Below, one piece after another: positions 29,911-52,323 of a stretch of DNA of 64,000 bases (its first letter is position 1; every line of letters begins with the position of its first letter). The position numbers and the translations under genes were made by a program. The notes under the pieces are model-generated. The model saw only the letters and a program-made list of their open reading frames with translations, had not been told where the DNA came from and did not search any database. The stretch lies in IMG/VR virus record IMGVR_UViG_3300042554_002438; one strand, given 5' to 3'. Source of the stretch: a virus (lineage: Duplodnaviria > Heunggongvirae > Uroviricota > Caudoviricetes).

Positions 29911-30702
29911 TTATAATGATAAATCGTTTAATGAATAAATTCTTTTATAGCCAACATTATATCTTCGGTTATGTTCGCAATCCATAAGAAATGTGCATAT
30001 ACCAGCGTTGTTCAATTCAACAAAATTTTCATATCTATCATCAACAAACCAATCGATACCAGATTTTTTTGCTACCTCAACTTTTGATTGGTCAAACCCG
30101 ATACTATAAACTGGAACCGCTGGGAAATTCCACTTTTTTAACCACTCTTCAGTCCATTCCCTGGGAATTGATCTTGATGTGATATAACAATGTGGCTCAA
30201 ATGGTAGGTCTTTTGGGGTCACTTTGGGCTCAATGTTGAGCCAGAAATCCTTATCATCTCGCATTAATTCGAATTTTTCCTTAATATTTCTATCAAAATT
30301 CCAAAATAACACTGGTTCAATGATACCATGTCTTTTTGTCCAAGCGCCTAACCAATCAGCTAAAACTTCATCAATATCCAACCCTATCTTTGGTGGGTTA
30401 AGGTACCGATGTCGTCTATCATCACCTTGTGGGTGTATCTTATAGAACTCGGTTAAAAAAGCTGCGTTTGTTAATACATGTGAAATATGTAACAATCCAC
30501 TTTCAGGATCATGGTCTTCACCGTTCTTAAAAGCATTCAAGTGCCTCTCAAGTGATGCTATTACCTCAGACCATTGTAGGCCGTTCTCCCAATCCCTTTC
30601 GCCGTATATCTCAGCACCCTTCATAAGTGCTGTCGCTAACTGGTTATACGCAAATGGGGGAACCAGGTCATAGCGAGGTTTATCTTTTTTTTCTCTATTC
30701 AT
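29911..30702 (-). CDS. fusion: dNTP pyrophosphohydrolase-like N-domain and 5'(3')-deoxyribonucleotidase (NT5C-like HAD) C-domain
   Basis: N-terminal DKPRYDLVPPFAYNQLATALMKGAEIYGERDWENG (phage dATP/dGTP diphosphohydrolase-type motif); C-terminal KIGLDIDEVLADW (DxDxV HAD motif I of NT5C). Confidence 0.5.
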   Translation of the reverse strand: MNREKKDKPRYDLVPPFAYNQLATALMKGAEIYGERDWENGLQWSEVIASLERHLNAFKNGEDHDPESGLLHISHVLTNAAFLTEFYKIHPQGDDRRHRYLNPPKIGLDIDEVLADWLGAWTKRHGIIEPVLFWNFDRNIKEKFELMRDDKDFWLNIEPKVTPKDLPFEPHCYITSRSIPREWTEEWLKKWNFPAVPVYSIGFDQSKVEVAKKSGIDWFVDDRYENFVELNNAGICTFLMDCEHNRRYNVGYKRIYSLNDLSL

Positions 30703-31728: not shown

Positions 31729-32172
31729 TTAATCGATTATAGTTTCAATTGTATGGGGCACTACCCATCTAGCGCAGTCTTGGGGTAAGCGATGGATATG
31801 TTTATAGTTATTTATATAACCCATCATGTTTGCTGAACCGACAGCATTAGCTGAATGAACCATTACCTTACAAACAGGCGCACCATTCAACCACTGTTCA
31901 ACTAACCATTTAGTGCAGTCCATACCAGTTTTTTCGGTGATGTTATCATAGTTCAATTGATAATTGTGATAAACATTTGTGTGCCATTCTTTCATCGCAC
32001 TATCACCAAGATCATGATCAAGTGATATTAAATCAATATTCTCTAAACCAATTTCGGTTATTTTGGAAACAAACTCATCGTAGTCTCTGACAACAGTCCA
32101 CTCGATTGTCATGTGTGTTGACGGGTTAGGTAAAGGCGTCCTAAGATCGTCTAAGTATATATTATATCTCAT
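31729..32172 (-). CDS. hypothetical protein
   Basis: 147 aa ORF. Confidence 0.45.
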   Translation of the reverse strand: MRYNIYLDDLRTPLPNPSTHMTIEWTVVRDYDEFVSKITEIGLENIDLISLDHDLGDSAMKEWHTNVYHNYQLNYDNITEKTGMDCTKWLVEQWLNGAPVCKVMVHSANAVGSANMMGYINNYKHIHRLPQDCARWVVPHTIETIID

Positions 32173-32567
32173 AATTTTATCTCAAATCTATTTTTCATTA
32201 TTTCTAATTTATCTTCTGGTACACCGTGTATGTTTTTACCACCATGCCTATTTTCTACGATTAAAGATGTTACTTTGTAATCGTAGTATTTAGCTTTTTC
32301 GTAGTAGAAATCCATTTCCCATTCTTGGGTAAATGTGTTAGATACTATGATTATCGATGTATCGTTAGCCATAGCTTTTTCCGTTTGGATCATACACCAG
32401 TTGTGTGCCATTTTAATATCGGCTGGGTTAAACTTGTATTCTCCGTCCTTCATGAAATACATGTCAGCTTCAAAGTGAGCATATCCAGCACCCTTTGCAC
32501 CGATTAAATCAGCGACTGTTGACTTACCACTTCCAGGCAATCCGCGTAATAATATTAAATCTTTCAT
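32169..32567 (-). CDS. polynucleotide 5'-kinase (T4 Pnk kinase-domain-like P-loop kinase)
   Basis: GLPGSGKST Walker A; HFEADMYF and IIIVSNTF...NRHGGKNIHGVPEDKLEIM collinear with the T4 Pnkp N-domain (GCPGSGKST...NRDDYR...ISDTN...RNSKRGTKAVPIDVL). Confidence 0.55.
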   Translation of the reverse strand: MKDLILLRGLPGSGKSTVADLIGAKGAGYAHFEADMYFMKDGEYKFNPADIKMAHNWCMIQTEKAMANDTSIIIVSNTFTQEWEMDFYYEKAKYYDYKVTSLIVENRHGGKNIHGVPEDKLEIMKNRFEIKL

Positions 32568-33858: not shown

Positions 33859-34369
33859 AAAAAGTTAAAATTATATCCTTAACGGTATCATCGTTTGTGT
33901 GTGTCCTGGCCGTTAATAACTTATACTTCTCAAAAAATGGGTCGTACTCTGATGAAAAATATTGATATTTATTCAACTCGTCTATATTTTTCGCAAAATA
34001 TTCATTGACCATAATTCTTTCACTTGATGTGGTCTGCATAAGCATTATGTAAACCAAGAAACCATCATCAGTTGTTAAAAAAACAACGTTATTTTTAAAA
34101 TTGATTGATATGAAATTTAAAAAATCGTCATTAATCATACCCGAATATTTGAATGGGCATAATTTATACAGAACACCCATCTGGCCAATCAATATCGGTT
34201 GTATTTCTTGATTAAAAGAATTGGTGATAAATATATTATCACCATTTTCTTCAAGGATTTTTGCAAAAAAAATATCCTTGAACACATTCTTATTTAAGTC
34301 AATATAATACTTTATGATTTTGTTAAAAGCCTCATCAAAAAATTTTGGATCTTTCATTTTAACCATCAA
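33854..34369 (-). CDS. hypothetical protein
   Basis: 171 aa ORF. Confidence 0.45.
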   Translation of the reverse strand: MMVKMKDPKFFDEAFNKIIKYYIDLNKNVFKDIFFAKILEENGDNIFITNSFNQEIQPILIGQMGVLYKLCPFKYSGMINDDFLNFISINFKNNVVFLTTDDGFLVYIMLMQTTSSERIMVNEYFAKNIDELNKYQYFSSEYDPFFEKYKLLTARTHTNDDTVKDIILTFS

Positions 34370-35460
34370 CTTATCGCATATATTCTTTTTCTAAAACGAA
34401 TTAACAAGTCGTCAACAAATTTTCTATCAACAGAATTAGGTAGATCTGATTTTGCGTAAAGGTCATCCAAAAGTGTGATTTTTGATTCCGCTTCGGCAAG
34501 AAGATCCTCATATTCAGCATCACCATTTCTTATTTTAAGTAATTCCTCAGCATCTGGTCTTTTGACGATCACTTGTTTAAGTTCGGCAATCTCGGTTGCC
34601 ATACGTATCAACCTAATACAGTGCATCATATTTTTTGAATCATAACCCTTACCATGTTCTTGGTTTGTGTTATATCGATCGTCATTACGCTTTTCAACCC
34701 AATCCCAGTATTCCTTATAATCTTTACAGTAAGAAGTATAACCATCCTTGTTATAGATAATTGTCGCAACTGGCTTTTCGCCAAATGGAATGGAACTTAA
34801 TCTAACCTCATTCGATGTGTCATCATCATTGACGATGCCACGATAACCGAGCCTAGAATTTTCTTTACTGGCGTAATGATCATAAAACATGGCGTATACA
34901 TCTCTGGCATGTGGTACATTAACCAAACCACATTTGTTCTGTACATAACCACTATTGTCCAAAAATGCTTTGAGTGGGATCGATTTATAACCATCGACAA
35001 CATAGCAAAAATCCAATATAGATTTGCGCTCTTTGTCAACTGGGTTTACAATTTTTTTGTTTAACCCGCGAGCTTTTTTAATTTGTGCGACAGCGTACCC
35101 ACCAAATGAATCGCGGCAAACTTTACTGATGAACTTATCCTTATGTTGTAGAATCATATCAAACATTGGGTGTTTGTAAAGTATATTCTCTTCGGGCATA
35201 TTGAATAACTCAATTATGTTTGGGTTTTGCGATTGTAATAATTGCAAGAACCTACCAATCTCATAGTAGACAGCATCATTTGTGGCATCCGAAACTTGTT
35301 CAATATAGTCATATCCCAGTACGTTATCAAGCGGTAAGTAGTAAACTCCACGATAATCGGTATCGGATGTTGGTTTGTGTGTACCATACGCCCTTGATCC
35401 AGATATTGTTTCAAACAATAAAAGTCCATTCGTTCTTAAATAATCTATCGTTAATCGCAT
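34366..35460 (-). CDS. Pol-beta-superfamily nucleotidyltransferase (RlaP-like; RNA-repair associated)
   Basis: GSRAYGTHKPTSDTDYRGV = GS...[DE]x[DE] nucleotidyltransferase motif with a helical C-terminal domain. Confidence 0.5.
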   Translation of the reverse strand: MRLTIDYLRTNGLLLFETISGSRAYGTHKPTSDTDYRGVYYLPLDNVLGYDYIEQVSDATNDAVYYEIGRFLQLLQSQNPNIIELFNMPEENILYKHPMFDMILQHKDKFISKVCRDSFGGYAVAQIKKARGLNKKIVNPVDKERKSILDFCYVVDGYKSIPLKAFLDNSGYVQNKCGLVNVPHARDVYAMFYDHYASKENSRLGYRGIVNDDDTSNEVRLSSIPFGEKPVATIIYNKDGYTSYCKDYKEYWDWVEKRNDDRYNTNQEHGKGYDSKNMMHCIRLIRMATEIAELKQVIVKRPDAEELLKIRNGDAEYEDLLAEAESKITLLDDLYAKSDLPNSVDRKFVDDLLIRFRKRIYAIS

Positions 35461-35936
35461 ATCATTTCTAATTTAAACCATTCGGGTATTTCTCTTTTTG
35501 TCCACTTAGCGAAATCGGCTTTAGCACCTATGTAATAATTTCGGTACGATTGAACCACCGAATAACCAACTTTATATTCGTCAGGCATAGCCATCGGTGG
35601 TGTTGTTGCACCAACATCCCTGGGTAACATTGGTACGTTCTTAGCGCACCATTCAATGATCGCTTCAGATTTATGTACCTTACCGTATCGGTATGTATAT
35701 TCTTCACACAACGCTAAACCAATTTCACAAAGATACTCATAATTCTCATCACTTTCTCTGACCCATTTTGCGCAGGGGTGGTTTTTGTGGCTAAGTTTGT
35801 ATGGCGCTTCTGAACCAACCATCCAGCAAGCTCCACATAATAATTGTGCTGTTTCAAGAATCATCTTCACAACATGCTTATCACAATGATATTCAGCAAT
35901 TTTACGTGGGTTAGTGTCTAAAAAGAATATATTCAT
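35451..35936 (-). CDS. hypothetical protein
   Basis: 161 aa; N-terminus loosely resembles Pdg/endoV-type glycosylases but is unconvincing. Confidence 0.4.
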   Translation of the reverse strand: MNIFFLDTNPRKIAEYHCDKHVVKMILETAQLLCGACWMVGSEAPYKLSHKNHPCAKWVRESDENYEYLCEIGLALCEEYTYRYGKVHKSEAIIEWCAKNVPMLPRDVGATTPPMAMPDEYKVGYSVVQSYRNYYIGAKADFAKWTKREIPEWFKLEMICD

Positions 35937-38108: not shown

Positions 38109-38497
38109 TAAAATTTAAAATTGAACTTATTTTCGAAATCTTTCTTTGTGACTGTATTAATACTCGAAACAATTTCATTTGGGATAACCACAATTATACC
38201 GTATGAACGGGAGAATTTTTCACAATACCCCATATATTTGTTGGTAATTTTTCGCCCCTCGATTAAATCAAAATATACTTTACCATTGATAATAAACTCT
38301 GGTTTCATCAAAACCGTTTCGGTAATAAAAAACACCTCGTTATTTGGTTGTATCGTTAAACCATTGTCAACACACCACTGGTTTAATATGTGGTAATTAC
38401 CCATCTGGCCTCGTTTAACACCCGTAAAAACTTTAAGTTTTTCTGACATAGTGAATATTTTTTTTACAAATATAAATATAATCCAAAAAAATTCCAT
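38108..38497 (-). CDS. hypothetical protein
   Basis: 129 aa ORF. Confidence 0.45.
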   Translation of the reverse strand: MEFFWIIFIFVKKIFTMSEKLKVFTGVKRGQMGNYHILNQWCVDNGLTIQPNNEVFFITETVLMKPEFIINGKVYFDLIEGRKITNKYMGYCEKFSRSYGIIVVIPNEIVSSINTVTKKDFENKFNFKF

Positions 38498-38521
38498 ACC
38501 TTTGCGTGATATTTATGTAAA

Positions 38522-40606
38522 ATGGCACAAAAAGTATCATATACAGGGGTTTTCTTGGACAAGGATTCAAGAGCCGTATTAGAAAAAGAGTTCAAATCGC
38601 AGGTTCCTGATGGATGGGAGTGGATTGCGCATCATATGACCATAACTTTAGGGGAAATGGTTGATAAATCGGAATTGGGTAAACAAGTTGCCCTTAATAT
38701 AGTTTCATTTGGTAAAGATGATAAAGTCATGGCAATTGGTGTCAAGGGTTACCCTAGTAAAAATGAAAAACCGCACATTACTTTAGCCGTTAATCGCGCT
38801 GAGGGTGGTAAACCTTATATGAGTAATTTAATTAAGGAATGGGTACCATACTCGATCGGTGCCATATTAACTGGTGTTGTCAGTGAATACCCGCCACAAT
38901 CTAAAGAAACACTTAATGAAGCTTATGATATTAAATCATTACCGTTCTATAACGATGTTATCAATAAAAACGGTAAAATATATCAGGTTGGTGGGGCTGT
39001 TAGAGATTTGTATCTGGGTAAACAATCTAAAGACCTTGACATCGTTATTAGTGGAATACCAGCTAAGGAACTCGAAGATGTGTTGAAAAAATATGGTAAA
39101 GTTGATATGGTTGGTGCGTCATTTGGTGTTATTAAGTTCACACCACCAGATGGTGAAGAAATTGATATTGCAATACCAAGAACTGAAAAGAAGAGTGGTG
39201 TTGGTTATCAGGGTTTTGATGTGTCGGCTGATCACACTCTCCCTATCGAAAAGGATCTTGAGAGAAGAGATTTCACAATAAATTCAATCGCTAAAGATAG
39301 TGATGGGAATGTTATTGATCCATTCGGTGGGTTAAAGGATCTTGATTCGAAGGTTATCAAATTAACAAACCCTAAGGCTTTTTCAGATGACCCATTAAGG
39401 ATGTTAAGGGCGATTCAATTTGCGTCTAGGTTTGGTTTTAAAATAGATGAGGAAACGTTTGATGCTATTAAAAAGAATGCGATGACTATTGACGAAATAT
39501 CAAAAGAGAGAATATTGATAGAGTTTGATAAAATCGTAAACAAAGGTAATCCCAGAGTCGGAGCTGAGTTATTAGTTTCAAGTGGATTGTACAGGGGCAT
39601 ATTCGGTACCGAGTTTGATGGTGATTTTGAACCGTTTGACCAAGTAACTAGGAACAGTGAGTTCGCTTACTGGTTGATCCAATCGTTCACCGAACAACCA
39701 GACCAATACTATAAGAATATAATGAAAGGTGACATCGATACGGCTAGAGAGATATCAGCTTTGGCTTATATGTATAACAACTTACCTGGTAACGACAAAG
39801 CAAAACAAAGATTTGTTTATTTTAATATAAATAAGATATCACCACAGATGTTTAATAGTAATTTCGTGAGAAGTATATTGAGTGATGTTATCAATGACTT
39901 TGATTCTCAAAAATACCCAGCTGGTTATTCGGATTTAAAAGTCAATGGTAATGATTTAATGGCAATGGGTTTAAAAGGTAAAGCTGTTGGTGATATGTTA
40001 AATAAATTAATCTCTGCAATATATTCTGATAAAATTGAAAATACAAAGAATGGTTTGTTGGGTTTTGTTGAGAGGAATAAGGATATGTTAAATGAATCTG
40101 TTGGTGGTACAAATAAGAATAGAGTTGTGTTTTATGATTTTGATGGTACTTTAATGGATAGTCCACTTCCTGACACAGGTAAACAAATCTATAAAGAAAA
40201 AACTGGTAATGTATACCCACATCAAGGTTGGTGGGGTCGTGCTGAGAGTTTGGATTTAAATGTCTTCGACATAAAAACAAATCCAGATGTTGAGGCTAAA
40301 TTTAGAGCTGACTCATCGGATCCAAATACGCATGTTGTTTTATTAACCAATAGGTTGTCAAAACTTGAGGAACCAATTAAAAAAGTTCTTGACAAACATA
40401 ATATGGTATTCGATTTTTATTCTTTTAAAAATGATGGTCGTGAAAAGGGTGAACGTGTTTTGGATATTTTAGCCAAAGTATATCCGAATACGAATGAAAT
40501 TGAATTTTATGATGACGATGAGCGACACATTCAAAATGTAAGAGATAATTTAATCGACACCGATTACGATTTCAAGGTGAATCAAGTTATTGATGGTAGA
40601 TTATAA
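38522..40606 (+). CDS. tri-domain RNA end-healing enzyme: 2H phosphoesterase, CCA-adding nucleotidyltransferase (class II) and HAD 3'-phosphatase
   Basis: N-terminal HHMTIT and PHITLA = two H-x-T/S-x motifs of 2H/LigT CPDases; middle GGAVRDLYLG...DLDIV...RRDFTIN...DPFGGLKDL...DPLRMLRAIQFA = CCA-adding/poly(A) polymerase head domain; C-terminal VVFYDFDGTLMD (DxDGT), LLTNR and YDDDERH = HAD phosphatase motifs as in the T4 Pnkp C-domain. Confidence 0.8.
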   Translation: MAQKVSYTGVFLDKDSRAVLEKEFKSQVPDGWEWIAHHMTITLGEMVDKSELGKQVALNIVSFGKDDKVMAIGVKGYPSKNEKPHITLAVNRAEGGKPYMSNLIKEWVPYSIGAILTGVVSEYPPQSKETLNEAYDIKSLPFYNDVINKNGKIYQVGGAVRDLYLGKQSKDLDIVISGIPAKELEDVLKKYGKVDMVGASFGVIKFTPPDGEEIDIAIPRTEKKSGVGYQGFDVSADHTLPIEKDLERRDFTINSIAKDSDGNVIDPFGGLKDLDSKVIKLTNPKAFSDDPLRMLRAIQFASRFGFKIDEETFDAIKKNAMTIDEISKERILIEFDKIVNKGNPRVGAELLVSSGLYRGIFGTEFDGDFEPFDQVTRNSEFAYWLIQSFTEQPDQYYKNIMKGDIDTAREISALAYMYNNLPGNDKAKQRFVYFNINKISPQMFNSNFVRSILSDVINDFDSQKYPAGYSDLKVNGNDLMAMGLKGKAVGDMLNKLISAIYSDKIENTKNGLLGFVERNKDMLNESVGGTNKNRVVFYDFDGTLMDSPLPDTGKQIYKEKTGNVYPHQGWWGRAESLDLNVFDIKTNPDVEAKFRADSSDPNTHVVLLTNRLSKLEEPIKKVLDKHNMVFDFYSFKNDGREKGERVLDILAKVYPNTNEIEFYDDDERHIQNVRDNLIDTDYDFKVNQVIDGRL

Positions 40607-40640
40607 AAAAAGCCGAGAATATTCTCGGCTCTTTATTTTT
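40605..40640. terminator. bidirectional rho-independent terminator
   Basis: A7-gccgagaatattctcggc-tttattttt between convergent genes. Confidence 0.7.
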
Positions 40641-40663: not shown

Positions 40664-41272
40664 TTAAACTATATCTGTTGATTCTAGCAAAGTGTAACTA
40701 AATTTGTTACCGTGTATTTTTGATGCTTTTCTACATATCTGCATAAAAATATCGAAATCAATAACTCTTTTAAAAACCTGACACCCCTCAGACCAATTTT
40801 CAACCCAAGTTGAATCTCGACCAGCTTTGTGTATATTGATACCAAACATACCAGTATCTGTTACTGTTTCTTGAAAAGTTAAATCTCTATTAGCATCTCT
40901 GTAAACCGTAACATTGCCATTTCTTTGGCATAATGCGGAATACTTTCCTTGATGTAAATCGATAGACCAAACACTTCTATATTGGCCTGGAACTAATCTA
41001 GCAACCCCTTTGTTATTGTGAAATTCCATAACGCCCTTCTTACCAGGATCAGTTGTTGCATTCCAGCAGTAGAATTTCCAAGTGCCAGTTTCGTCTTTGT
41101 ATGATATTGTCAAACAATCATCAAACACATTTGTTACTTTGTCAGCAACAGATGGTGTGTTTAACCTAACACCAACTATGTTGACATCATACGTTTTATT
41201 TTTATCATCGTTAAACCAAACATAATTTTTTGATTTAACAGCCCTCTCAATTTGTTCTCTCGTATAACACAT
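40664..41272 (-). CDS. YkuD-fold (L,D-transpeptidase-like) domain protein, putative peptidoglycan-active
   Basis: INIHKAGRDSTWVENWSEGCQVF matches the H...S-x-G-C-[IV] catalytic motif of YkuD domains. Confidence 0.4.
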   Translation of the reverse strand: MCYTREQIERAVKSKNYVWFNDDKNKTYDVNIVGVRLNTPSVADKVTNVFDDCLTISYKDETGTWKFYCWNATTDPGKKGVMEFHNNKGVARLVPGQYRSVWSIDLHQGKYSALCQRNGNVTVYRDANRDLTFQETVTDTGMFGINIHKAGRDSTWVENWSEGCQVFKRVIDFDIFMQICRKASKIHGNKFSYTLLESTDIV

Positions 41273-41274
41273 AT

Positions 41275-41565
41275 TTAATCTCTAGTTGGGAAAATACCCT
41301 GAAGGGCGATGCATGTTTCCATGTACGGTTTACCTTGGTAAATATCACCAATATTTAACTGAACCAAATTACCGTGTTCATCTTTTGGTCTTAAATCTGG
41401 TAACGCAAATGTCGTAACACCATCGCCACCATAATATGTACCCAATAGAGCAAATAATGCTGTGTTTTGTGAAATTGATAATAATTGTCCGTGGCAGAAA
41501 GCCCAACCACGTGGTGCAAATGGGAATCCAAATTGTTGAATTTGCCCTAAAAATTGTTCATCCAT
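41275..41565 (-). CDS. phage tail collar domain protein
   Basis: FGFPFAPRGWAFCHGQLLSISQNTALFALLGTYYGGDGVTTFALPDLR tail-collar (MdpB-like) motif. Confidence 0.65.
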   Translation of the reverse strand: MDEQFLGQIQQFGFPFAPRGWAFCHGQLLSISQNTALFALLGTYYGGDGVTTFALPDLRPKDEHGNLVQLNIGDIYQGKPYMETCIALQGIFPTRD

Positions 41566-41596
41566 ATTTAATTTTTTTTATTTAATTTTATTTATT

Positions 41597-41887
41597 TTAA
41601 AATTTAGCATCTGCGATAAGTTTTTTTCGGTATAATGGTGTGGTTAACTTACTCTCATTAACATATTCACCGATTATTGCTATGTAATAAAGTGGTAACC
41701 CCATTGCCATAGCTTGGCTATTAAAGTCTGGTAAAGAAAAATTTTGCGCACTATCACCACCATAAGTATTTCCAATCACAGCGTACAACGCTTTACTTGA
41801 TGGTTCCGCACGTGAACCATCACACGGGGCCCAGATCATTGGGTTTGGGGTGTAAGCAAACTGTCTTATTTCTCCAATTGTTATCAT
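41597..41887 (-). CDS. phage tail collar domain protein (paralog)
   Basis: WAPCDGS...ALYAVIGNTYGGD...FSLPDF; paralog of the previous gene. Confidence 0.65.
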   Translation of the reverse strand: MITIGEIRQFAYTPNPMIWAPCDGSRAEPSSKALYAVIGNTYGGDSAQNFSLPDFNSQAMAMGLPLYYIAIIGEYVNESKLTTPLYRKKLIADAKF

Positions 41888-42621
41888 TGTAATAAGTTAT
41901 TAAATTTTTTGAAATATTTTAGTCTATCATCTAAACCATTTGTTCCACCATTAACTCTTTTTGTTACTGAAATAACAGTTGCATCGTCAGCTCCTCTATC
42001 ACAGATAGTCCATAGTTTATTGCTATTAAAAAAATATGCCGCAGACATCATTGGGTATTTTGTTGCAACCAAATCTGGATTGGCGACACAATCTTCACCG
42101 CAGAACTTAGAAAATTTACCATAATTTGCCCTACCAGTTAATTGTATATAACCTCTTCCTTTAAATCTTACACCATCACCTGGTTGTGTGTTACCAAGAT
42201 CTTTTCTACCCTCATATGCAGCACCTGACGCAAATTCAACAACCCATTTAAAGTTACCAGATTCGTGTGCACATTGCGCTAAAAAGTGAGCTAATCTTAA
42301 ATTAGTTGTTATATTAAATTTTGCGGCTGTATCTGGTATCTGAGCTAAAACGTTATCTGGTATTTGTCCTTTTAATTTATCAAGATTTAAACCAGAGTTG
42401 TTTGAAATAACTGTTTCAGTTTTTTTAGGTTCTGGAAACATTTTACCCCAGGTTATATCACCCACAATACCATCATCAAGTAATCCATTGGCTTTCTGCC
42501 ATGCTTTCACAGCGGCCTCAGTTTTTGGGCCAAAAGTCCCAAGTGCTTTACCAGCATCTACACCCAAAAAGTTCTGTAATTTTTTTACATCTTCACCTTT
42601 TGATCCAATCTTTAACAACAT
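41884..42621 (-). CDS. endolysin: peptidoglycan-binding domain plus GH19 chitinase-like lysozyme
   Basis: N-terminal PG_binding_1-like (DGIVGDITWGKM); catalytic AHFLAQCAHESGNF GH19 signature. Confidence 0.8.
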   Translation of the reverse strand: MLLKIGSKGEDVKKLQNFLGVDAGKALGTFGPKTEAAVKAWQKANGLLDDGIVGDITWGKMFPEPKKTETVISNNSGLNLDKLKGQIPDNVLAQIPDTAAKFNITTNLRLAHFLAQCAHESGNFKWVVEFASGAAYEGRKDLGNTQPGDGVRFKGRGYIQLTGRANYGKFSKFCGEDCVANPDLVATKYPMMSAAYFFNSNKLWTICDRGADDATVISVTKRVNGGTNGLDDRLKYFKKFNNLLQ

Positions 42622-42681
42622 ACTTCTTTATTTTATTATAAATAGTATGAGATAAATAAAAGTAATAAAAAATTAGATTTG

Positions 42682-42752
42682 AGCTGGTAGTTGGAATCGA
42701 ACCAATCTCTATAAGTTTTGCAGACTTATTGCACTCCATGTACATTACCAGC
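42682..42752 (-). tRNA. tRNA-Cys (GCA)
   Basis: hand fold: GCTGGTA/TACCAGC acceptor, TAAGT-CTGCAAA-ACTTA anticodon arm, TTCGATT T-loop; short D-loop. Confidence 0.65.
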
Positions 42753-42759
42753 ATATTAG

Positions 42760-42830
42760 CACGGGTGGAAGGATTCGAACCTCCATCGCTGGTTTTGGAG
42801 ACCAGCATTCTACCATTGAAATACACCCGT
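42760..42830 (-). tRNA. tRNA-Trp (CCA)
   Basis: ACGGGTG/CACCCGT acceptor, CTGGT-CTCCAAA-ACCAG anticodon arm. Confidence 0.7.
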
Positions 42831-42837
42831 ATATTGT

Positions 42838-42989
42838 GGACACAGTGGGAATCGAACCCAAACGATCTCCTTGCAAGGGAGTCGACCTGCCTTCGGTATC
42901 TGGCCCATATGGCGGAGAGCGGAGTACTCGAAACTCATACCCGAAAGTACCACTCGCTTAGCAGGCGGTGACAGCACCCTGGCTGTGTC
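42838..42989 (-). ncRNA. atypical 152-nt tRNA-like RNA (acceptor helix and T-arm but a non-canonical core)
   Basis: 3' TGGG-TTCGATT-CCCA T-arm followed by CTGTGTC; the exact complement GACACAG lies 152 nt upstream; an internal ACTCC-CTTGCAA-GGAGA hairpin and GGTACT/AGTACT hairpin; no standard D-arm. Confidence 0.35.
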
Positions 42990-43001
42990 ACTCTCCATTT
43001 G

Positions 43002-43077
43002 TCGGGAAAGCTGGATTCGAACCAGCGATCTCTCGCGTCCAAGGCGAGCGAGGATGACCTGACTCCTCCATTTCCCG
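43002..43077 (-). tRNA. tRNA-Pro (TGG)
   Basis: CGGGAAA/TTTCCCG acceptor, CTCGC-CTTGGAC-GCGAG anticodon arm, GCTGG-TTCGAAT-CCAGC T-arm. Confidence 0.65.
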
Positions 43078-43082
43078 TTTTG

Positions 43083-43155
43083 TAGGGTAGACAGGGTTCG
43101 AACCTGCGACCCCGTGCTCCCAAAGCACGTGCGCTACCAACTGCGCTACTACCCT
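43083..43155 (-). tRNA. tRNA, anticodon TGG (second Pro-like)
   Basis: AGGGTAG/CTACCCT acceptor, GCGC D-stem, CGTGC-TTTGGGA-GCACG anticodon arm. Confidence 0.55.
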
Positions 43156-43162
43156 ATGTTTG

Positions 43163-43248
43163 TCGGAGTGGAGGGATTCGAACCCCCTGAGTTTCCAATG
43201 TGCCAGATTTACAGTCTGGTGCCCATCCGCCGTCTGAGCAGCACTCCG
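43163..43248 (-). tRNA. tRNA-Tyr (GTA), class II
   Basis: CGGAGTG/CACTCCG acceptor, CCAGA-CTGTAAA-TCTGG anticodon arm, 15-nt variable arm (bacterial type). Confidence 0.75.
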
Positions 43249-43261
43249 AAATGATATAAAA

Positions 43262-43288
43262 CAAAAAACCCTGAGATTTTGTCCCAGG
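43262..43288 (-). terminator. rho-independent terminator (minus strand) upstream of the tRNA array
   Basis: A-run then ccctgagattttgtcccaggg hairpin; followed on plus by the conserved GGGCTTCTACTAT. Confidence 0.55.
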
Positions 43289-43460
43289 GCTTCTACTATT
43301 TTATATAATTAGTTTCCAAAAAAAATCGTTAACTAAAAGACAATAGAAGCCCTGTTCCAGCTGGATATGCTGGAGCTGCTGGACAACTATACGGCCATGC
43401 CACGATATTTTTGTTCAAATTTTTCATTTTGTCTTTATAAATAGTGTGTTCTTTTAAAAA

Positions 43461-43505
43461 GTGATACAAATATAAGCACAGTTTTTTAAATAAGCAAGTT
43501 TTTTT
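43461..43505 (-). promoter_or_regulatory. promoter-like motif copy
   Basis: gtgatacaaatataagcacagttttttaaataagcaagttttttt. Confidence 0.4.
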
Positions 43506-43528
43506 AAAAATTAATCATAAATTTCTGT

Positions 43529-43572
43529 TATATCGGTCATGTGATACAAATATATCGGTCATGTGATACAAA
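43529..43572. repeat. 22-bp tandem direct repeat x2 (tatatcggtcatgtgatacaaa)
   Basis: two adjacent identical copies; the GTGATACAAA core also starts the promoter-like motif at 43461. Confidence 0.6.
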
Positions 43573-43593
43573 CCAGGCGCTTACCACTCACAA

Positions 43594-43668
43594 TTGGGGC
43601 GAACGATGAGGTTCGAACTCACGACCTCCTGAACCACAATCAGGCGCTCTAACCAACTGAGCTACGTC
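43594..43668 (-). tRNA. tRNA-His (GTG) with encoded G-1 and encoded 3' CCA
   Basis: G-1 paired to C73, GCGGACG acceptor, CCTGA-TTGTGGT-TCAGG anticodon arm; CCA is templated. Confidence 0.8.
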
Positions 43669-43682
43669 CGCCATGTAATCCC

Positions 43683-44525
43683 CTACCTGTTGGTGGGGAT
43701 TAAGTTATTTAAATATTCTCTATTTTGAGTAAAGATTGGTGTTTCGACATCCAATTCCCAAGCGCTTCTGGTGTAAACATCCTTTGGATCAATCACAACC
43801 GTATCACGATTGACTTCCGCATTGGCACTTTTACGAACAAACGTCTTTTCAATTTTTCTGATTATACCACCACGTTTTTCTCTTGGTGAGTAATCATTCC
43901 AATTTGTACCAGCCTGAAATATCAATTCTTGCATACCATCGGTCTTAACCCCATGTAATTGTTTTGGTGAGTATAAACTCTGAGCGACCGATGAAATTGA
44001 ATTTCTGGTCGCATCTTGTTGTCTCCAGATGAAATAATTCTCAACCTCAACTTTTTGTGGGATTTGAAATACCCTGGCATCAAACATAGCCAATTTAGGT
44101 TCGCTGGCGTATCTTTTATCCGTCACAGACTTTCTCTCGATAACATGTAGATTCTTAATATAACGATCCATTCTCAATTTATTAAAGATGGCTGTTGCCA
44201 TTGAGGCTGAAACGCTCGCCATTTTCTGTAAGTTATTATCGAACCAAGCTTGTGTGCCCTCATCTTCAAAATCGGTGATCAAAATTGAAATCTCATCTGA
44301 TTGCACATACGCAAACTTAGCACCCATAATGTTTTTACATAGATATGCCGCTGTCTCATCCATATCATCAATCAAATCCAAATCAAATGGCCTTCTCAAA
44401 CCTTTTGTATAGGTGTGAAAAGCCTTACCATCAATTCTGATAATGGTGTAACCTCTTCTTGGTAATGAAATACGAGTTCTATCCTCATAGTTCGATTTCA
44501 TTCTGTCTCCTAATGCGTCTTTCAT
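43683..44525 (-). CDS. Thg1-like protein (tRNA-His guanylyltransferase / 3'-5' nucleotidyltransferase family)
   Basis: RIDGKAFH, YVQSDEISIL (conserved QSDE catalytic motif) and FIWRQQD collinear with Thg1 (RLDGRNFH, YGQSDEYSF, LSWRQAD). Confidence 0.75.
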   Translation of the reverse strand: MKDALGDRMKSNYEDRTRISLPRRGYTIIRIDGKAFHTYTKGLRRPFDLDLIDDMDETAAYLCKNIMGAKFAYVQSDEISILITDFEDEGTQAWFDNNLQKMASVSASMATAIFNKLRMDRYIKNLHVIERKSVTDKRYASEPKLAMFDARVFQIPQKVEVENYFIWRQQDATRNSISSVAQSLYSPKQLHGVKTDGMQELIFQAGTNWNDYSPREKRGGIIRKIEKTFVRKSANAEVNRDTVVIDPKDVYTRSAWELDVETPIFTQNREYLNNLIPTNR

Positions 44526-44956
44526 TTTATTTCTTGGTTAATTTTATATTCTTCTTCTGTTGCTATTCTAATTGGTACGAACAGCGCATACCCATCATCA
44601 TCCTCAAAATGGTTACAATCGTCTTCATAAGTCATATTAAACTTAGTTCGATTGTAGATGAACTTGTTTTGTTTGACATCCCATTTTGCTATGGTGGCTC
44701 TCCTATGATCACCCGCATAAAACTGACCGTCAACCAAATTTTTTTTCTGAATAGCCCCAGCGCCAATTAATTTTGGTACATAAAAGTTATTCCACTCATC
44801 AGTTTCAACTCGTGGTAATTCGGGTATATCATTAACACCAGCGAATGGTTTTAATGTCTCCCAATATTCACGAATACGTTGTTCCCTTTCAGCTTTTTCA
44901 ATTTCTCGTTTAGCTTTCAGTTCAGCGAATATCATATCTTTATCAATCTGTTCCAT
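44522..44956 (-). CDS. hypothetical protein
   Basis: 144 aa ORF. Confidence 0.45.
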
Positions 44957-44960
44957 AACA

Positions 44961-45045
44961 AATCATTTTGCGGAGAGGGAGGGATTCGAACCCCCGTTAC
45001 CTTTCGGTAAAACGGTTTTCAAGACCGCCGCGATCAACCGCTCTG
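44961..45045 (-). tRNA. tRNA-Ser (TGA), class II
   Basis: GGAGAGG/CCTCTCC acceptor, CTTGAAA anticodon loop, long variable arm. Confidence 0.7.
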
Positions 45046-45107
45046 CCACCTCTCCAATATTTCACAAATATAAGAATAAAAATGTTAATTAACAAGTTTA
45101 TTTTTGG

Positions 45108-45181
45108 TAGGCATGGTAGGACTCGAACCTACGACCTTCTGCGTATCAGACAGACGCTCTAACCAACTGAGCTACATGCCT
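45108..45181 (-). tRNA. tRNA-Ile (GAT)
   Basis: AGGCATG/CATGCCT acceptor, TCTGT-CTGATAC-GCAGA anticodon arm. Confidence 0.7.
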
Positions 45182-45188
45182 ATATTTG

Positions 45189-45262
45189 TACACCCTGATG
45201 GATTCGAACCACCGACCCCCTGCATGTAAGGCAGGTGCTCTAACCAACTGAGCTAAGGATGC
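45189..45262 (-). tRNA. tRNA-Val (TAC)
   Basis: CCTGC-CTTACAT-GCAGG anticodon arm, GGTGG-TTCGAAT-CCATC T-arm. Confidence 0.7.
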
Positions 45263-45268
45263 AAATTG

Positions 45269-45342
45269 TGACCCCATCGGGACTCGAACCCGAAACCTTC
45301 GCATTAAAAGTGCGAAGCTCTAACCAATTGAGCTACGAGGTC
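45269..45342 (-). tRNA. tRNA-Lys (TTT)
   Basis: TCGCA-CTTTTAA-TGCGA anticodon arm, TCGGG-TTCGAGT-CCCGA T-arm. Confidence 0.75.
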
Positions 45343-45350
45343 ATATAAAA

Positions 45351-45386
45351 CAAAAAACCCAGGTGGTTTACCTGGGTTTTCTTTTC
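45351..45386 (-). terminator. rho-independent terminator (hairpin with T-runs on both strands)
   Basis: cccaggtggtttacctggg flanked by an A-run and a T-run. Confidence 0.6.
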
Positions 45387-45515
45387 TAACTCTATGTTCT
45401 TTAGTTTAACATAAATTAGGCAATACTAACCCAGCCCAGTTTTTCACCGAGATATGTTTAATTGACTTAATAATGTTAACCATTGTGTTCATTTTACTGA
45501 TTTTTAAATATATAG

Positions 45516-45556
45516 TGCAAAAGTAAGCAAAGTTTTTTAAATATGCAAGTTTTTTC
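45516..45556 (-). promoter_or_regulatory. promoter-like motif copy
   Basis: gtgcaaaagtaagcaaagttttttaaatatgcaagtttttt. Confidence 0.4.
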
Positions 45557-45565
45557 AAAAAAAAA

Positions 45566-45958
45566 TTAAAAAATTTCTCTTTTACCTCTAGATACTGGCT
45601 CCAAACCTTTATTTCTGTCAATATAGATCCAGTCATATTCAACCAAACCGAACTCATTGAGATGGTCTAATACGGTCTCAATACTATATTCTTTACATGA
45701 ATAAATGTCAAATTGAACCAAACTTGGTGTATTTGCATCCCAAATATGAATCGCAGCATGTGAGGTTGCAAGGGTTATTGTCCCAGTAATACCCTCATTA
45801 CCTGGCTCGTCAACATAAATGGACGTTGGGCCAGCAACGACAACCATACCAACTTTATTTACCAACGAGGTTAACCATGCGTCTAAAACCTCTTCCTTCT
45901 TTGGTGGATTTAAAACGTATCCACGGACGATTAAATGCAAGTGATTTGGATTGAACAT
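45566..45958 (-). CDS. pyruvoyl-dependent decarboxylase, SpeH-like S-adenosylmethionine decarboxylase family
   Basis: TGTITLATSHAAIHIWDANTPSLVQFDIYSCKE collinear with the SpeH core ([27 protein letters not shown]). Confidence 0.5.
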   Translation of the reverse strand: MFNPNHLHLIVRGYVLNPPKKEEVLDAWLTSLVNKVGMVVVAGPTSIYVDEPGNEGITGTITLATSHAAIHIWDANTPSLVQFDIYSCKEYSIETVLDHLNEFGLVEYDWIYIDRNKGLEPVSRGKREIF

Positions 45959-46000
45959 TTTCTATAATATTTACTGAAATAAATATTAAGAATTAGCGTT

Positions 46001-46035
46001 AAAAACAAAAAAACCGAATTATTTATTCGGTTTTT
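46001..46035 (-). terminator. rho-independent terminator
   Basis: ccgaattatttattcgg hairpin with flanking A- and T-runs; overlaps the stop codon of 46023..46406. Confidence 0.55.
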
Positions 46036-46406
46036 GCGTTATTTTTGAATTTTGGTTTTAATGATTTTTTATCAATTTCCATTGTAAAATGGTATCGTAA
46101 TAAATCATCATCCGTATAATCACCTGACGATGAAAAATTTAAAGACTTAATGTCAAAACTAAAACCACCGATGATTTCACCAGTGGGGTCAAGGTATTCT
46201 AATTCAATTCTCGATAAATTAAATAAATCGGTTGGAATAATATGGTCATTAACTGTTTCATAACAAGATGTTTCAAACATTAATCTATCACCATCATTAT
46301 ATAGTTTATATTTTGAAAATAAGTAGGGGTGAATCTCAACACCAACCGTTTTAATTAACCAGCGATTTGTTTTTTTCGGTTCAATTGGGAATTTTTCGAT
46401 ATTCAT
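46023..46406 (-). CDS. hypothetical protein
   Basis: 127 aa ORF. Confidence 0.45.
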   Translation of the reverse strand: MNIEKFPIEPKKTNRWLIKTVGVEIHPYLFSKYKLYNDGDRLMFETSCYETVNDHIIPTDLFNLSRIELEYLDPTGEIIGGFSFDIKSLNFSSSGDYTDDDLLRYHFTMEIDKKSLKPKFKNNAKTE

Positions 46407-46427
46407 GATTAAATTTTATTTTTTTTA

Positions 46428-48080
46428 TTATAAACTGTAAATTCCAAAAGGCGTAATTAAATAATCAATGATTTTATTTTTTAAATGAGTCATAGCTTCT
46501 TCGGGACGATTTACTATTGGCTCGTTATGAACATTAAATGAAGTATTTACCAAACAACCAAAACCTGTTTGATTTTTATAAGATTTCAAAATATGATAAA
46601 ATAATGGATTTGAATTTTTAGTTACAATTTGAATACGTGCCGTTTTGTCCACAGGATGGACAACAGTTGGTAACTTATCTTTCCATTCATCTCGTGTTTC
46701 AAAACATAATGTCATAAACTCAGCGGCATATCTAGATTTATTCACTATAAACAATCGATTAGCATCCTCATCTATTACTGCTGGCGCAAAAGGCATAAAA
46801 TCGTTACGTTGTAACTTATCATTAATTAATTTATAAGTTTCGGGGTGAGTGGCGTCACAAATAATACTTCTATTACCTAAAGCTCTAGGGCCGTGTTCAA
46901 ATTTGCCCTGAAATAATCCTAATATTTTTTTATTAAGTAATAAAACAGTAATAAAATCTATATTAAAAGGAATATAATTATATGTTCCTAAAATATTTTT
47001 TGCCGCTTCATCTACGTGTTCTTTATCATACTCATTCCCAAAAAACACATTATTTAATCTAAAAGGTTTAAAATCAGGATGAAGTTGTTTAATCGTTCCT
47101 AAAACACACCCTAAAGCTAACCCCTCATCACCCATTGGGGGGGCTATAAATACTTCATCCACCCATTCTAGTTCATTAATTAATTTATTCATTTTTACAT
47201 TAGCAAAAATACCTCCAGCCATTGCCACTTTTTTAACATGAGGATATTTTTGATGTAAATTATTAAGTATTTTTAAGATTTTTTCCTCAAATACTTTCTG
47301 TCCAGTATAAGCAATGTTTTTAATAGTTTCATGATTCTTCCAATATCGAGAACCCATTGATTTAAAAAAGTTTTGATAAGTTTTTAAAAAAACATTTCCC
47401 CCAGCTAAATCACTATCATCAGAAAAAGGTGAAATTTCTGTTTGAAGACCATCAATTTTAATAACTTCGTTAAAAGCATCATATATTTCAGGTATTAGTC
47501 CTCCATGCCCAGCCATACCCACTACTTTACCTTCATCTTTTAATCTTTTAAATCCTATTAATTCTGTAATAGCGGCATAAAATAGTCCTAAAGAATCTCT
47601 ATTTAATAAAATCCCATCGATATACTCTAAATTACCATTTTTACCTAAATAATACTTAGCTGAATGATTTTCTCCTGAACCATCAATAGCCACAACTAAT
47701 GTATCTTCTTGAAAGTTAGATAAGTAATATGCTGTATTAATATGAGAATCGTGGTGTTCGATTTTAATATATTTTTCTTTTTCTAAATTAAAATTAATGG
47801 TCATTTTAAAAATATCTCTGATTATTTCGTAATCGTAAAAACTAGTGAAATAATTTACTTTTCCTAAATCTACATCATGTTTAACTATTAATTCAGTAAG
47901 AGAAGCTAAAGGATATCTAAAATAATTATTTTCAAAATCTTTATAAGGTTTAATCCTATTTAATCTTTCTTCCTCTAAGACTACTTTTAAATCGCCATTT
48001 TCAAAATAAGCTAACCCACAGCTGTGAGAACCACCAATAATTCCTAATATTCGATAGGAAGAATTTTCGTACAATTTCAT
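46428..48080 (-). CDS. carbamoyltransferase (NodU/CmcH family)
   Basis: 550 aa; YRILGIIGGSHSCGLAYFENGDLKVVLEEERLNRIK N-terminus typical of NodU/HypF-type carbamoyltransferases. Confidence 0.7.
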   Translation of the reverse strand: MKLYENSSYRILGIIGGSHSCGLAYFENGDLKVVLEEERLNRIKPYKDFENNYFRYPLASLTELIVKHDVDLGKVNYFTSFYDYEIIRDIFKMTINFNLEKEKYIKIEHHDSHINTAYYLSNFQEDTLVVAIDGSGENHSAKYYLGKNGNLEYIDGILLNRDSLGLFYAAITELIGFKRLKDEGKVVGMAGHGGLIPEIYDAFNEVIKIDGLQTEISPFSDDSDLAGGNVFLKTYQNFFKSMGSRYWKNHETIKNIAYTGQKVFEEKILKILNNLHQKYPHVKKVAMAGGIFANVKMNKLINELEWVDEVFIAPPMGDEGLALGCVLGTIKQLHPDFKPFRLNNVFFGNEYDKEHVDEAAKNILGTYNYIPFNIDFITVLLLNKKILGLFQGKFEHGPRALGNRSIICDATHPETYKLINDKLQRNDFMPFAPAVIDEDANRLFIVNKSRYAAEFMTLCFETRDEWKDKLPTVVHPVDKTARIQIVTKNSNPLFYHILKSYKNQTGFGCLVNTSFNVHNEPIVNRPEEAMTHLKNKIIDYLITPFGIYSL

Positions 48081-48082
48081 AA

Positions 48083-48763
48083 TTAATCTAATTCTTTTAT
48101 AATTTCTTTTTTATTAAAATCATATTTCCACCAAGAATTTTCACCAGGTGTAGAAATGTATGACACATGAGTCATGTGCGCTTTTTTTACACACATTTGT
48201 TTATATTTATTTTGGTTTGTAATTCTGTTAGACCATTGAGCGTCAGTTGACGCGAGATATTGGGTGATGCCTTGAATATCGTTAGCGGCAATAGTGTGAT
48301 AAGGGTGTTCTAACCAAATGTGTCTCCTAATTCCAGTAAAAAACCAACCAGTAAACGACACTTCAAATTCATCTGGTAGGGCATCCATTTCATATGTTTT
48401 AAAAAATTTATTATATTTTTCCATCAAAGGAAGTTGCCCTCCCTGACAATGTATCCATTGTTTGCCTTGAGAATGAATTGTTGCTAAATAACTATTTTGC
48501 CTAACACACGACCACCCTGTAACTATTTCGTGTCTATGTAACGCTTCTTCTAAATAGGCAAAATTTTCAGGACTAATAATAACATCATCAGAAACAATAA
48601 AATAATTATCATAATTTGTTTCTTCAATGAAGGAAGGAATATGTGTATTGAGTTCATATTCCCTAAACCCCTTAAACCAAACTTTAGGGACTTTTAATTT
48701 TGAGATGGCGTGTTTTATGATTTCTTCATCTCTAACACTCATTATCATTAAACAATTTTTCAT
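48083..48763 (-). CDS. hypothetical protein, possible glycosyltransferase
   Basis: 226 aa; position within the sugar-modification cluster; weak GT-A-like features. Confidence 0.35.
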   Translation of the reverse strand: MKNCLMIMSVRDEEIIKHAISKLKVPKVWFKGFREYELNTHIPSFIEETNYDNYFIVSDDVIISPENFAYLEEALHRHEIVTGWSCVRQNSYLATIHSQGKQWIHCQGGQLPLMEKYNKFFKTYEMDALPDEFEVSFTGWFFTGIRRHIWLEHPYHTIAANDIQGITQYLASTDAQWSNRITNQNKYKQMCVKKAHMTHVSYISTPGENSWWKYDFNKKEIIKELD

Positions 48764-49443
48764 AATTTATTCGAAAAAAATCCTAAAATATCTTCAATAA
48801 TTTCTAAAGAATTTTTATTAACAATTCCATCTGGGTTATAAAAATAATCGGGAACGCTCTCCGTACCAAATTTTCCCACATTATACCCAGCATAAAATTG
48901 ATTGAAATCACTACCCCAAGGTAAATAAGCTGTAACCCAATCATATTTTTTTGTTTCGTGCAGATAACCATTAATGATAGAAATGTTACAATTATGTTCT
49001 TTTCTAAATCTATCTATTACGCACATCCAAACGTGAAGCTCTTCTGGGTTTTCACTGTGTAACGTAAAATTAACTAATTTATATCTTAAATCTAGCTTGT
49101 CTTCAAGTAAGATCTCTCTAGTATGTGGATTAAGAATTTTAACCTCATAAGGGACAAATCCTTTATAAAACCACCTTAAATACGAATGATTTGGTATATT
49201 GGCGGCTTCCCAAAGAATTTTAAAATCTTCTGAATTTATTATTTCCTCTTCAATTGACTTTGAACCTGAGGCGTTGTAATTGTACTTTAATTTTTTTACA
49301 ACTTTGGTTTTTTCAATAGATATTTCTACACGAAATTCATTAAGTTTATTATCATCATCGTGTACATGAACACATAAACCATCTCGGTAATCTACCATAA
49401 ATCTATAATTCATATTTTTGTTTTTAAAATTTATTTTATCCAA
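48760..49443 (-). CDS. hypothetical protein
   Basis: 227 aa ORF. Confidence 0.45.
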   Translation of the reverse strand: MDKINFKNKNMNYRFMVDYRDGLCVHVHDDDNKLNEFRVEISIEKTKVVKKLKYNYNASGSKSIEEEIINSEDFKILWEAANIPNHSYLRWFYKGFVPYEVKILNPHTREILLEDKLDLRYKLVNFTLHSENPEELHVWMCVIDRFRKEHNCNISIINGYLHETKKYDWVTAYLPWGSDFNQFYAGYNVGKFGTESVPDYFYNPDGIVNKNSLEIIEDILGFFSNKL

Positions 49444-50161: not shown

Positions 50162-50412
50162 TTTTTACCGTACATTTTAGTTGCACCTTGTTTATATAAT
50201 TTTTGTTGTTTTCCAGTTGCCACCATTTCATTAATACTTTCATCAATTTCTTGTATTAAATCTGTTCGATATGTGTTAGCAACATTTGTAACTCGAGTAG
50301 CATCTGCTATTTGTTTATCGGAGGCATTGGGATCACGTTTAATGTCTTCGGCCATCCAAATACGAATATTAGCTATTGTAAGTTTGTCAATTAAATTTCC
50401 TATTGTTTCCAT
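50158..50412 (-). CDS. hypothetical protein
   Basis: 84 aa ORF. Confidence 0.4.
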   Translation of the reverse strand: METIGNLIDKLTIANIRIWMAEDIKRDPNASDKQIADATRVTNVANTYRTDLIQEIDESINEMVATGKQQKLYKQGATKMYGKK

Positions 50413-50415
50413 AGT

Positions 50416-51039: not shown

Positions 51040-51040
51040 A

Positions 51041-52264: not shown

Positions 52265-52323
52265 TTTTTTTATAAATTTTGTATAACTTAAAATTAAGTT
52301 AAAATAATTGATAAGTAAAGTAT

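Follow-up and report, generated by a model that had tools for sequence, protein, structure and literature searches.

What would a phage gain from carrying a 2H phosphoesterase, a CCA-adding enzyme and a HAD phosphatase in a single polypeptide? The question is raised by one gene in the virus record IMGVR_UViG_3300042554_002438 of IMG/VR (Caudoviricetes), of which a stretch of 64,000 nucleotides (nt; hereafter the window) was analyzed. The gene lies at 38522–40606 on the + strand, and its product of 694 amino acids (aa) joins a compact 2H module, a class II CCA-adding-type nucleotidyltransferase and a HAD module. The open reading frame (ORF), the three folds, the conservation of every catalytic motif and the recurrent genetic linkage of the modules were observed directly. 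On balance, these features lead us to favor a trifunctional tRNA 3′-end healing and CCA-adding enzyme as the function predicted from the sequence. The protein is a member of an abundant family of putative phage tRNA-tail repair enzymes.

Domain composition of the fusion protein

A sequence-only reading of this DNA had described a single 694-aa ORF with motifs of all three modules, and the ORF and each of the quoted motifs are present. The gene and its parts are as follows.

38522–40606, + strand: gene of the fusion protein, an ORF from ATG to stop encoding 694 aa, with the stop codon included in the coordinates.
38522–38896, + strand: compact 2H phosphoesterase module, residues 1–125, with H38-M-T40 at nt 38633–38641 and H85-I-T87 at nt 38774–38782.
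38897–38959, + strand: linker, residues 126–146, in which the predicted local distance difference test score (pLDDT) is below 50 from residue 129; close relatives are split at this point.
38960–40081, + strand: predicted class II CCA-adding-type nucleotidyltransferase module (head, neck, body and tail), residues 147–520.
38990–39040, 39263–39283, 39386–39400 and 39506–39532, + strand: motifs of the CCA module, namely, motif A with DxD, RRDFTIN, DDPLR and ERxxxExxK, in this order.
40121–40603, + strand: HAD_SAK_1-type phosphatase module, residues 534–694.
40136–40150, 40226–40234, 40340–40354, 40439–40459 and 40511–40516, + strand: motifs of the HAD module, namely, motif I (DFDGT), GWW, motif II (LLTNR), the segment containing the lysine of motif III (K642) and the DD of motif IV, in this order.

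The N-terminal module contains both HxT motifs of the 2H superfamily, HMTI at residues 38–41 and HITL at residues 85–88, and H38, T40, H85 and T87 were invariant among 24 homologues. Because a PDB search with an N-terminal profile returned only noise, such as endonuclease III at an E value of 0.6, the evidence for the 2H assignment comes from family-wide Pfam matches and from the comparison of structures. The Pfam family PF08302 (tRNA_lig_CPD, the cyclic phosphodiesterase [CPD] domain of fungal tRNA ligase) was matched by all 24 homologues tested at E values of up to 1, the best being 1.2e-7, and two polyprotein relatives exceeded its cut-off with 24.0 and 33.0 bits. An AlphaFold2 model of the module, built from the family alignment, had a pLDDT of 83 and displayed the bilobed alpha+beta fold of 2H enzymes. 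Compared with predicted viral structures, the model was most similar to Trl1-like giant-virus proteins of approximately 770 aa, followed by Acb1. The sequence-only reading of a 2H/LigT module with two H-x-T-x motifs was thus borne out, in that the motifs are present and the fold seen in the AlphaFold2 model is a 2H fold and not another one. The N-terminal module is therefore a 2H phosphoesterase, and the model places it closest to the CNPase/Trl1-CPD branch. Its HxT motifs are 47 residues apart; the spacing in LigT, CNPase and Trl1 is approximately 80 to 100 residues. With 125 aa, the module is among the smallest versions of the 2H fold.

In the middle module, GGAVRD...DLD occupies residues 157–173, RRDFTIN residues 248–254 and DDPLRMLR residues 289–296. 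The head motifs A, B (RRD), D ((E/D)DxxR) and E (ERxxxExxK) are all present and invariant and could be aligned with those of the CCA-adding enzymes in PDB entries 6ibp and 1miv, which were also the top PDB matches (E = 1e-31 and 1e-29, respectively). The length of the flexible loop is within 2 residues of that in 6ibp. Pfam families PF01743 (1.2e-24) and PF12627 (2.5e-15) matched the window protein, with PF13735 below its cut-off, and PHROG 2244 (tRNA nucleotidyltransferase) matched at 1.4e-67. The best NCBIfam model was NF009814, a Bacillus-type CCA tRNA nucleotidyltransferase, of which profile positions 17–394 of 396 aligned over residues 147–520. The sequence-only reading had recognized a class II CCA-adding head; the end-to-end alignment with NF009814 and the matches to 6ibp and 1miv confirm this and indicate, as far as sequence can, that the module represents a whole CCA-adding-type class II enzyme.

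The motifs of the C-terminal module are DFDGT at residues 539–543, LLTNR at 607–611 and DDDE at 664–667. D539, D541, T609 and D665 are invariant, T543 and D664 nearly so, and K642 is conserved in at least 90% of the sequences. PF10307, which is described as HAD domain family 1 in Swiss Army Knife RNA repair proteins, was matched with 32.4 bits by the full protein and 36.8 bits by the isolated domain, above its cut-off of 25.6, as well as by 22 of 22 homologues. The only PDB sequence match was weak and was to the Pnkp1 phosphatase. The module has a Rossmannoid HAD fold, and the RNA-repair phosphatases Pnkp1 and T4 Pnkp are among the closest structures. The earlier suggestion of a HAD phosphatase like the T4 Pnkp domain is supported by the motifs, the fold and this structural closeness, and the catalytic Asp pair, whose absence would have spoken against it, is invariant (D539 and D541). 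What needs correction is the family, which is HAD_SAK_1 and not the one fused to the Pnkp kinase. A Pfam scan revealed no kinase domain in the fusion protein; a separate AAA_33 kinase ORF is located at 32169–32567.

Recurrence, fission and reordering of the modules

We aligned the window protein with 28 further full-length homologues, giving 29 sequences that are 43 to 78% identical and span all three modules. T40, H85, T87, D171, D173, R248 to D250, D290, R293, D539, D541, T609 and D665 were invariant or nearly so, as was H38 (nearly invariant). The retention of the motif residues across these sequences rules out a chance occurrence of the motifs. A protein identical to the window protein (P0001) was found in JGI, ENA, Logan and NCBI assemblies, as were variants that fall into its 90% cluster. 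At least 17 contigs, which come from several independent samples, encode the variant P0121 (694 aa); one of them is 298.7 kb long and has the same gene order. Full-length homologues occur on contigs of up to 540 kb. In their sources, the homologues are named only "tRNA nucleotidyltransferase/poly(A) polymerase" or "hypothetical protein". We also considered that the fusion might be a frameshift or assembly artefact and rejected this possibility because the fusion recurs in independent samples and has many full-length homologues.

A split form is as recurrent as the fusion and constitutes a separate lineage of approximately 80% identity (P0011–P0020 and P0022; locus L005). In this lineage, the 2H module is encoded by its own 129-aa gene, which is followed, 10 nt after its end, by a 565-aa CCA-HAD gene that shares its strand and neighborhood; in L005, the stop codon of the former and the start codon of the latter both lie within the stretch that matches the linker of the window protein. 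The modules are also found in other arrangements. P0028 has the order 2H, an insert of approximately 330 aa, CCA and HAD, and P0052 has the order CCA, 2H and HAD behind another region (X-CCA-2H-HAD). In P0080, P0084 and P0086, the CCA module is followed by the compact 2H module and HAD is absent; P0084 and P0086 add a second, LigT/Acb1-like 2H domain, and P0080 adds a Nudix domain. Four metagenome polyproteins of 1766 to 2332 aa (P0188, P0206, P0166 and P0169) contain the compact 2H module alongside a CCA-type nucleotidyltransferase and an Acb1-like 2H domain, with a GNAT acetyltransferase domain also present in P0188 and P0206 and large stretches of all four lacking a Pfam match. The constant partner among the rearranged forms is the CCA-type nucleotidyltransferase. 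This retention of partners through fusion, fission and reordering argues that the modules are independent catalytic units acting in one pathway.

The compact 2H module is widespread. A search of 1.84 billion cluster representatives with the 2H profile returned 2235 proteins at E values of 0.001 or lower, 1202 of them at 1e-10 or lower; among the best 150 matches, 76 were standalone proteins (200 aa or shorter) and 21 were longer than 1000 aa. The fusion as a whole was found in none of 50,697 deposited phage records. In this set, megablast with the gene returned no match, and tblastn with the whole protein matched 508 records, none at 80% coverage or higher. The 2H and HAD modules alone matched only unannotated huge-phage records (LR7565xx and LR745206), apart from one Kolpuevirus hypothetical protein matched by 2H. 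Both modules occur in two of these records (LR756511.1 and LR756504.1), where they are far apart and unfused.

Genomic setting of the gene

The phage is an uncultured jumbo phage of approximately 300 kb. Around the fusion gene, the − strand carries every other credible gene and the 27 tRNA genes, and the local GC skew changes sign to match. In positions 1–61147, no other + strand ORF of at least 100 aa is free of overlap with tRNA genes or a longer ORF on the − strand, and the next real + strand genes are a pair, the first of which starts at 61148. The earlier statement that this is the only substantial plus-strand gene in 60 kb holds by this overlap check over approximately 61 kb. Two elements flank the gene.

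38497–38504, + strand: promoter-like element TACCTTTG, which fits the Bacteroidota −7 consensus TAnnTTTG, lies 18 nt upstream of the ATG and begins 25 nt before it.
40605–40640, no strand assigned: hairpin common to the convergent genes, consisting of A7, an 8-bp GC-rich stem (40611–40630) and a T-rich tail.

TACCTTTG is a candidate promoter of the fusion gene; in the relative L005, the equivalent position is occupied by TACATTTG. TAnnTTTG is over-represented in the window (133 occurrences against 94.7 ± 9.7 expected) and is found just upstream of several leading genes, as well as ahead of the fusion gene. A scan of the window for sigma-70 promoters gave no information (14 sites, 13.6 expected), and the TAnnTTTG motif fits better. 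A Shine-Dalgarno-like sequence precedes only 1 of the 65 ORFs in the window. From the scarcity of such sites and the enrichment and placement of TAnnTTTG, it is reasonable to suppose that the host is probably of the Bacteroidota type. The hairpin at 40611–40630, whose free energy is −13.5 kcal/mol (z = −4.0 against shuffles), is placed between the fusion gene and the convergent gene at 40664–41272. It looks like a bidirectional intrinsic terminator shared by the two genes, in agreement with the sequence-only reading.

Among the 27 tRNA genes of the window, 23 lack an encoded CCA and 4 have it, as had been noted earlier for nearly all local tRNA genes. In the 3′ flanks of the 23 CCA-less genes (42681–60404, − strand), the discriminator base is followed directly by C in every case and then by A in 19 (N73-C-A, often CAAA). 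Such a C-A flank deviates strongly from the base composition and points to a conserved 3′-processing signal or a partial tail. The tRNA-His gene (43595–43671, − strand) is one of the four that encode CCA. The region abounds in functions of tRNA metabolism and RNA repair; other genes for RNA repair and related functions in the window are listed below.

43683–44525, − strand: Thg1 tRNA-His guanylyltransferase, directly adjoining the tRNA-His gene.
27811–29193, − strand: ATP-dependent RNA ligase with a PHA02142 OB domain.
32169–32567, − strand: AAA_33 PNK-like kinase of 132 aa.
34366–35460, − strand: RlaP nucleotidyltransferase.
35451–35936, − strand: pyrimidine-dimer glycosylase-like ORF adjoining RlaP.
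11810–13672, − strand: SPFH/Band-7 protein of 620 aa.
13998–16518, − strand: nicotinamide phosphoribosyltransferase (NAMPT) and phosphoribosyl pyrophosphate (PRPP) synthetase, side by side, forming an NAD+ salvage module.

SPFH modules were reportedly proposed by Burroughs and Aravind in 2016 as scaffolds of RNA repair systems, together with tRNA-like RNA. A lone tRNA-Met gene is located at 17775–17849.

A short adenylosuccinate-synthetase homologue of 341 aa (10295–11320, − strand; PF00709, 4e-82) and a protein with the N-terminal domain of dATP/dGTP diphosphohydrolase (29911–30702, − strand; PF18909) form a pair resembling PurZ/MazZ of phages that swap adenine for 2-aminoadenine, and the phage may have Z-DNA-base chemistry. 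Unusual phage auxiliary genes, all on the − strand, encode a tyrosinase/polyphenol-oxidase-like protein (6469–7920), a Nol-like carbamoyltransferase (46428–48080), a C-methyltransferase (51041–52264) and a ferritin-like protein (19865–20500). Downstream of the fusion gene and convergent with it (40664–42621, − strand) are an endolysin-like ORF of 202 aa, a small phage tail-collar ORF and a PG_binding/Glyco_hydro_19 endolysin. The relative L001 has a second collar-domain gene called at the matching place. An endolysin/collar neighborhood is odd for a tRNA enzyme, and it is kept in relatives.

Proposed repair of tRNA tails, alternatives and known systems

In the mechanism that we propose, the CCA module would grip the acceptor/T-arm (top half) of a tRNA and supply C74, C75 and A76; most phage tRNAs would need this module because CCA is not encoded in 23 of the 27 tRNA genes. 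A tail cut off by a metal-independent RNase would leave an end with a 2′,3′-cyclic phosphate, which a polymerase could not extend. The 2H module, as a CNPase/Trl1-type enzyme, would open the cyclic phosphate, most likely to a 2′-phosphate and a free 3′-OH, the Pnkp-like HAD module would strip the remaining 2′- or 3′-phosphomonoester, and the CCA module would then rebuild the tail. T4 Pnkp removes both 2′- and 3′-phosphates. The enzyme would thereby mature phage tRNAs and reset host or phage tRNAs clipped by metal-independent RNases, for example by HEPN nucleases at N73|CCA. A 2′-phosphate is expected as the product of the 2H module because the 2H enzymes LigT and CNPase yield a 2′-nucleotide (PMC5283653). 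Since CNPase/Trl1-CPD-type enzymes open the cyclic phosphate in this way, the HAD module probably must remove a 2′-phosphate, with or instead of a 3′-phosphate. The sequence-only reading had proposed end healing and CCA repair starting from a cyclic phosphate or a 3′-phosphate; the domain tests are consistent with this sequence of events, and the amendment is that a 2′-phosphate is probably involved also or instead. We infer all enzymatic activities of the protein, the 2′-phosphate regiochemistry and the action of the 2H and HAD modules on tRNA, as well as the counter-defence role considered below.

Some points weigh against a trifunctional repair enzyme. The match of the window protein to PF08302 is below the cut-off of 23 bits (18.0 for the full protein and 21.1 for the isolated domain), and every NCBIfam CCA equivalog is likewise below its cut-off, the best being NF009814 with 182 bits against 290. 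Judged by these scores at the family level, the middle module may add CCA, CC or A, or may be a poly(A) polymerase. The second-best structural neighbor of the 2H module is Acb1, an enzyme that breaks down immune signalling nucleotides, and related polyproteins also carry an Acb1-like domain. As to the substrate, ordinary tRNA 3′ maturation yields a 3′-OH, for which healing modules are not needed, and the RuvC site of Cas12a3 should also leave a 3′-OH, so that such damage needs the CCA module alone. A lost discriminator base is beyond repair by a CCA-adding enzyme.

We suggest tentatively, as one possibility, that the fusion is a dedicated counter-immunity enzyme that reverses host damage at the tRNA CCA end by HEPN/Cas13 nucleases, Cas12a3 or toxSAS/CapRel-type toxins. 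Among HEPN nucleases, some Cas13 enzymes cleave at N73|CCA with a cyclic phosphate as the product, and toxins of the last type possibly leave a 3′-pyrophosphate on the tail. Cas12a3 clips tRNA CCA tails in anti-phage immunity (PMC12851939), and LbaCas13a cuts exactly at A|CCA, with HEPN chemistry leading to a cyclic phosphate (bioRxiv 10.64898/2025.12.03.690598). In mycobacteria, PcnA, a CCA-adding enzyme, counters the toxin MenT3, which acts at tRNA 3′ ends (PMC11541572). tRNA tails are a recently emerged target of bacterial immunity, CCA-adding enzymes can detoxify such damage, and the fusion protein, which can be cloned, is a specific candidate for the corresponding counter-defence. If this were true, the compact 2H module, with its 2235 cluster representatives, many of which are fused or adjacent to CCA-type nucleotidyltransferases, would mark a widespread and unstudied arms race between phage and host over the tRNA tail.

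Two other explanations, both of which we regard as unlikely, deserve comparison with the repair enzyme. In one of them, the fusion is a polyvalent counter-defence protein whose modules have unrelated substrates, with 2H acting on cyclic-oligonucleotide or 2′-5′ signals as Acb1 does, HAD on free nucleotides and the nucleotidyltransferase on phage tRNAs. The giant relatives that join the compact 2H module with Acb1-like 2H and GNAT domains would fit such a protein, and polyvalent phage proteins are reported as a theme in PMC5512222; however, the HAD module is closest to RNA-repair phosphatases, and the three modules remain linked despite fission and reordering. In the other, the enzyme would serve housekeeping only, with the CCA module acting on phage tRNAs and the 2H and HAD modules clearing spontaneous cyclic phosphate ends, a task that has been suggested for the HD domain in E. 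coli Cca, and with no role in immunity conflict. The 23 of 27 tRNA genes without CCA and the precedent of E. coli Cca (PMC6961547) speak for this view, which differs from the proposed model in emphasis and not in mechanism, whereas the position of the gene among conflict-type RNA repair genes (RNA ligase, RlaP, kinase and Thg1) and the rapid domain shuffling of the family, which is typical of conflict systems, speak against an exclusively housekeeping role. The least probable explanation is that the nucleotidyltransferase is not a CCA-adder and attaches poly(A) or other tails by which RNAs are marked or stabilized, with healing modules that ready cleaved ends for tailing. The head-domain motifs are all common to bacterial poly(A) polymerases and CCA-adding enzymes of class II, the NCBIfam scores are all sub-cut-off and the pcnB models match at 110 bits, but the best matches are to CCA-adding enzymes throughout (NF009814 at 182 bits including the tail; 6ibp and 1miv at the top in PDB), and 23 phage tRNA genes require CCA.

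The trifunctional repair enzyme that we favor can be compared with several known systems. Fungal and plant Trl1 CPD domains and vertebrate CNPase are much larger than the phage 2H module (approximately 125 aa), which has no ligase or kinase attached. The 125-aa module could serve as a minimal cyclic phosphodiesterase, and the entire protein as a reagent for turning 2′,3′-cyclic-phosphate ends of RNA into extendable, CCA-tagged ends in one step. Unlike T4 Pnkp and Capnocytophaga Pnkp1, the phage protein has a HAD module without a fused kinase, which is of the HAD_SAK_1 type with a GWW motif and is coupled to a CCA-adding enzyme and not to a ligase pathway. The Pfam names HAD_SAK_1 and HAD_SAK_2 are said to derive from Burroughs and Aravind (2016), who reportedly described "Swiss Army Knife" (SAK) RNA repair proteins computationally. 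The phage protein carries HAD_SAK_1, the family-defining domain, with other RNA-repair domains (2H and nucleotidyltransferase) in one chain, and it would resemble the SAK proteins in this respect and in its modular shuffling. In a later survey by the same group, the SAK HAD of jumbo phages was mostly standalone and the CCA-adding enzyme was listed separately (PMC7824862).

A literature search for a fusion of CCA-adding, 2H and HAD domains returned nothing specific. The sequence-only reading had noted that the domain order is not known from characterized enzymes; this part stands, as we found neither such an enzyme nor an annotated phage gene of this kind (the SAK set was compared via Pfam and PMC7824862), but a single enzyme that combines healing with CCA addition is already known, namely, E. 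coli Cca. According to PMC6961547, which cites Yakunin 2004, the HD domain of E. coli Cca removes the 2′,3′-cyclic phosphate and so permits CCA repair. E. coli Cca (NF008137) and the phage protein would thus share, in one chain, a class II CCA module and the removal of cyclic phosphate and phosphomonoester, as documented for the former in that source and predicted from sequence for the latter. Their heads and necks are homologous, residues 152–356 aligning with profile positions 2–202 of 409. The phage protein has no C-terminal HD domain (no HD Pfam match), unlike E. coli Cca, and would obtain its healing functions from an unrelated N-terminal 2H and a C-terminal HAD module; the C-terminal body and tail also differ from those of E. 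coli Cca and resemble the Bacillus-type enzyme. By this analogy, the phage protein would work like E. coli Cca without being a member of that family, as a functional analogue built from different parts, and it would represent a natural case of non-orthologous replacement in which the HD domain of E. coli Cca is swapped for 2H plus HAD. The concept is known, and the parts list is new.

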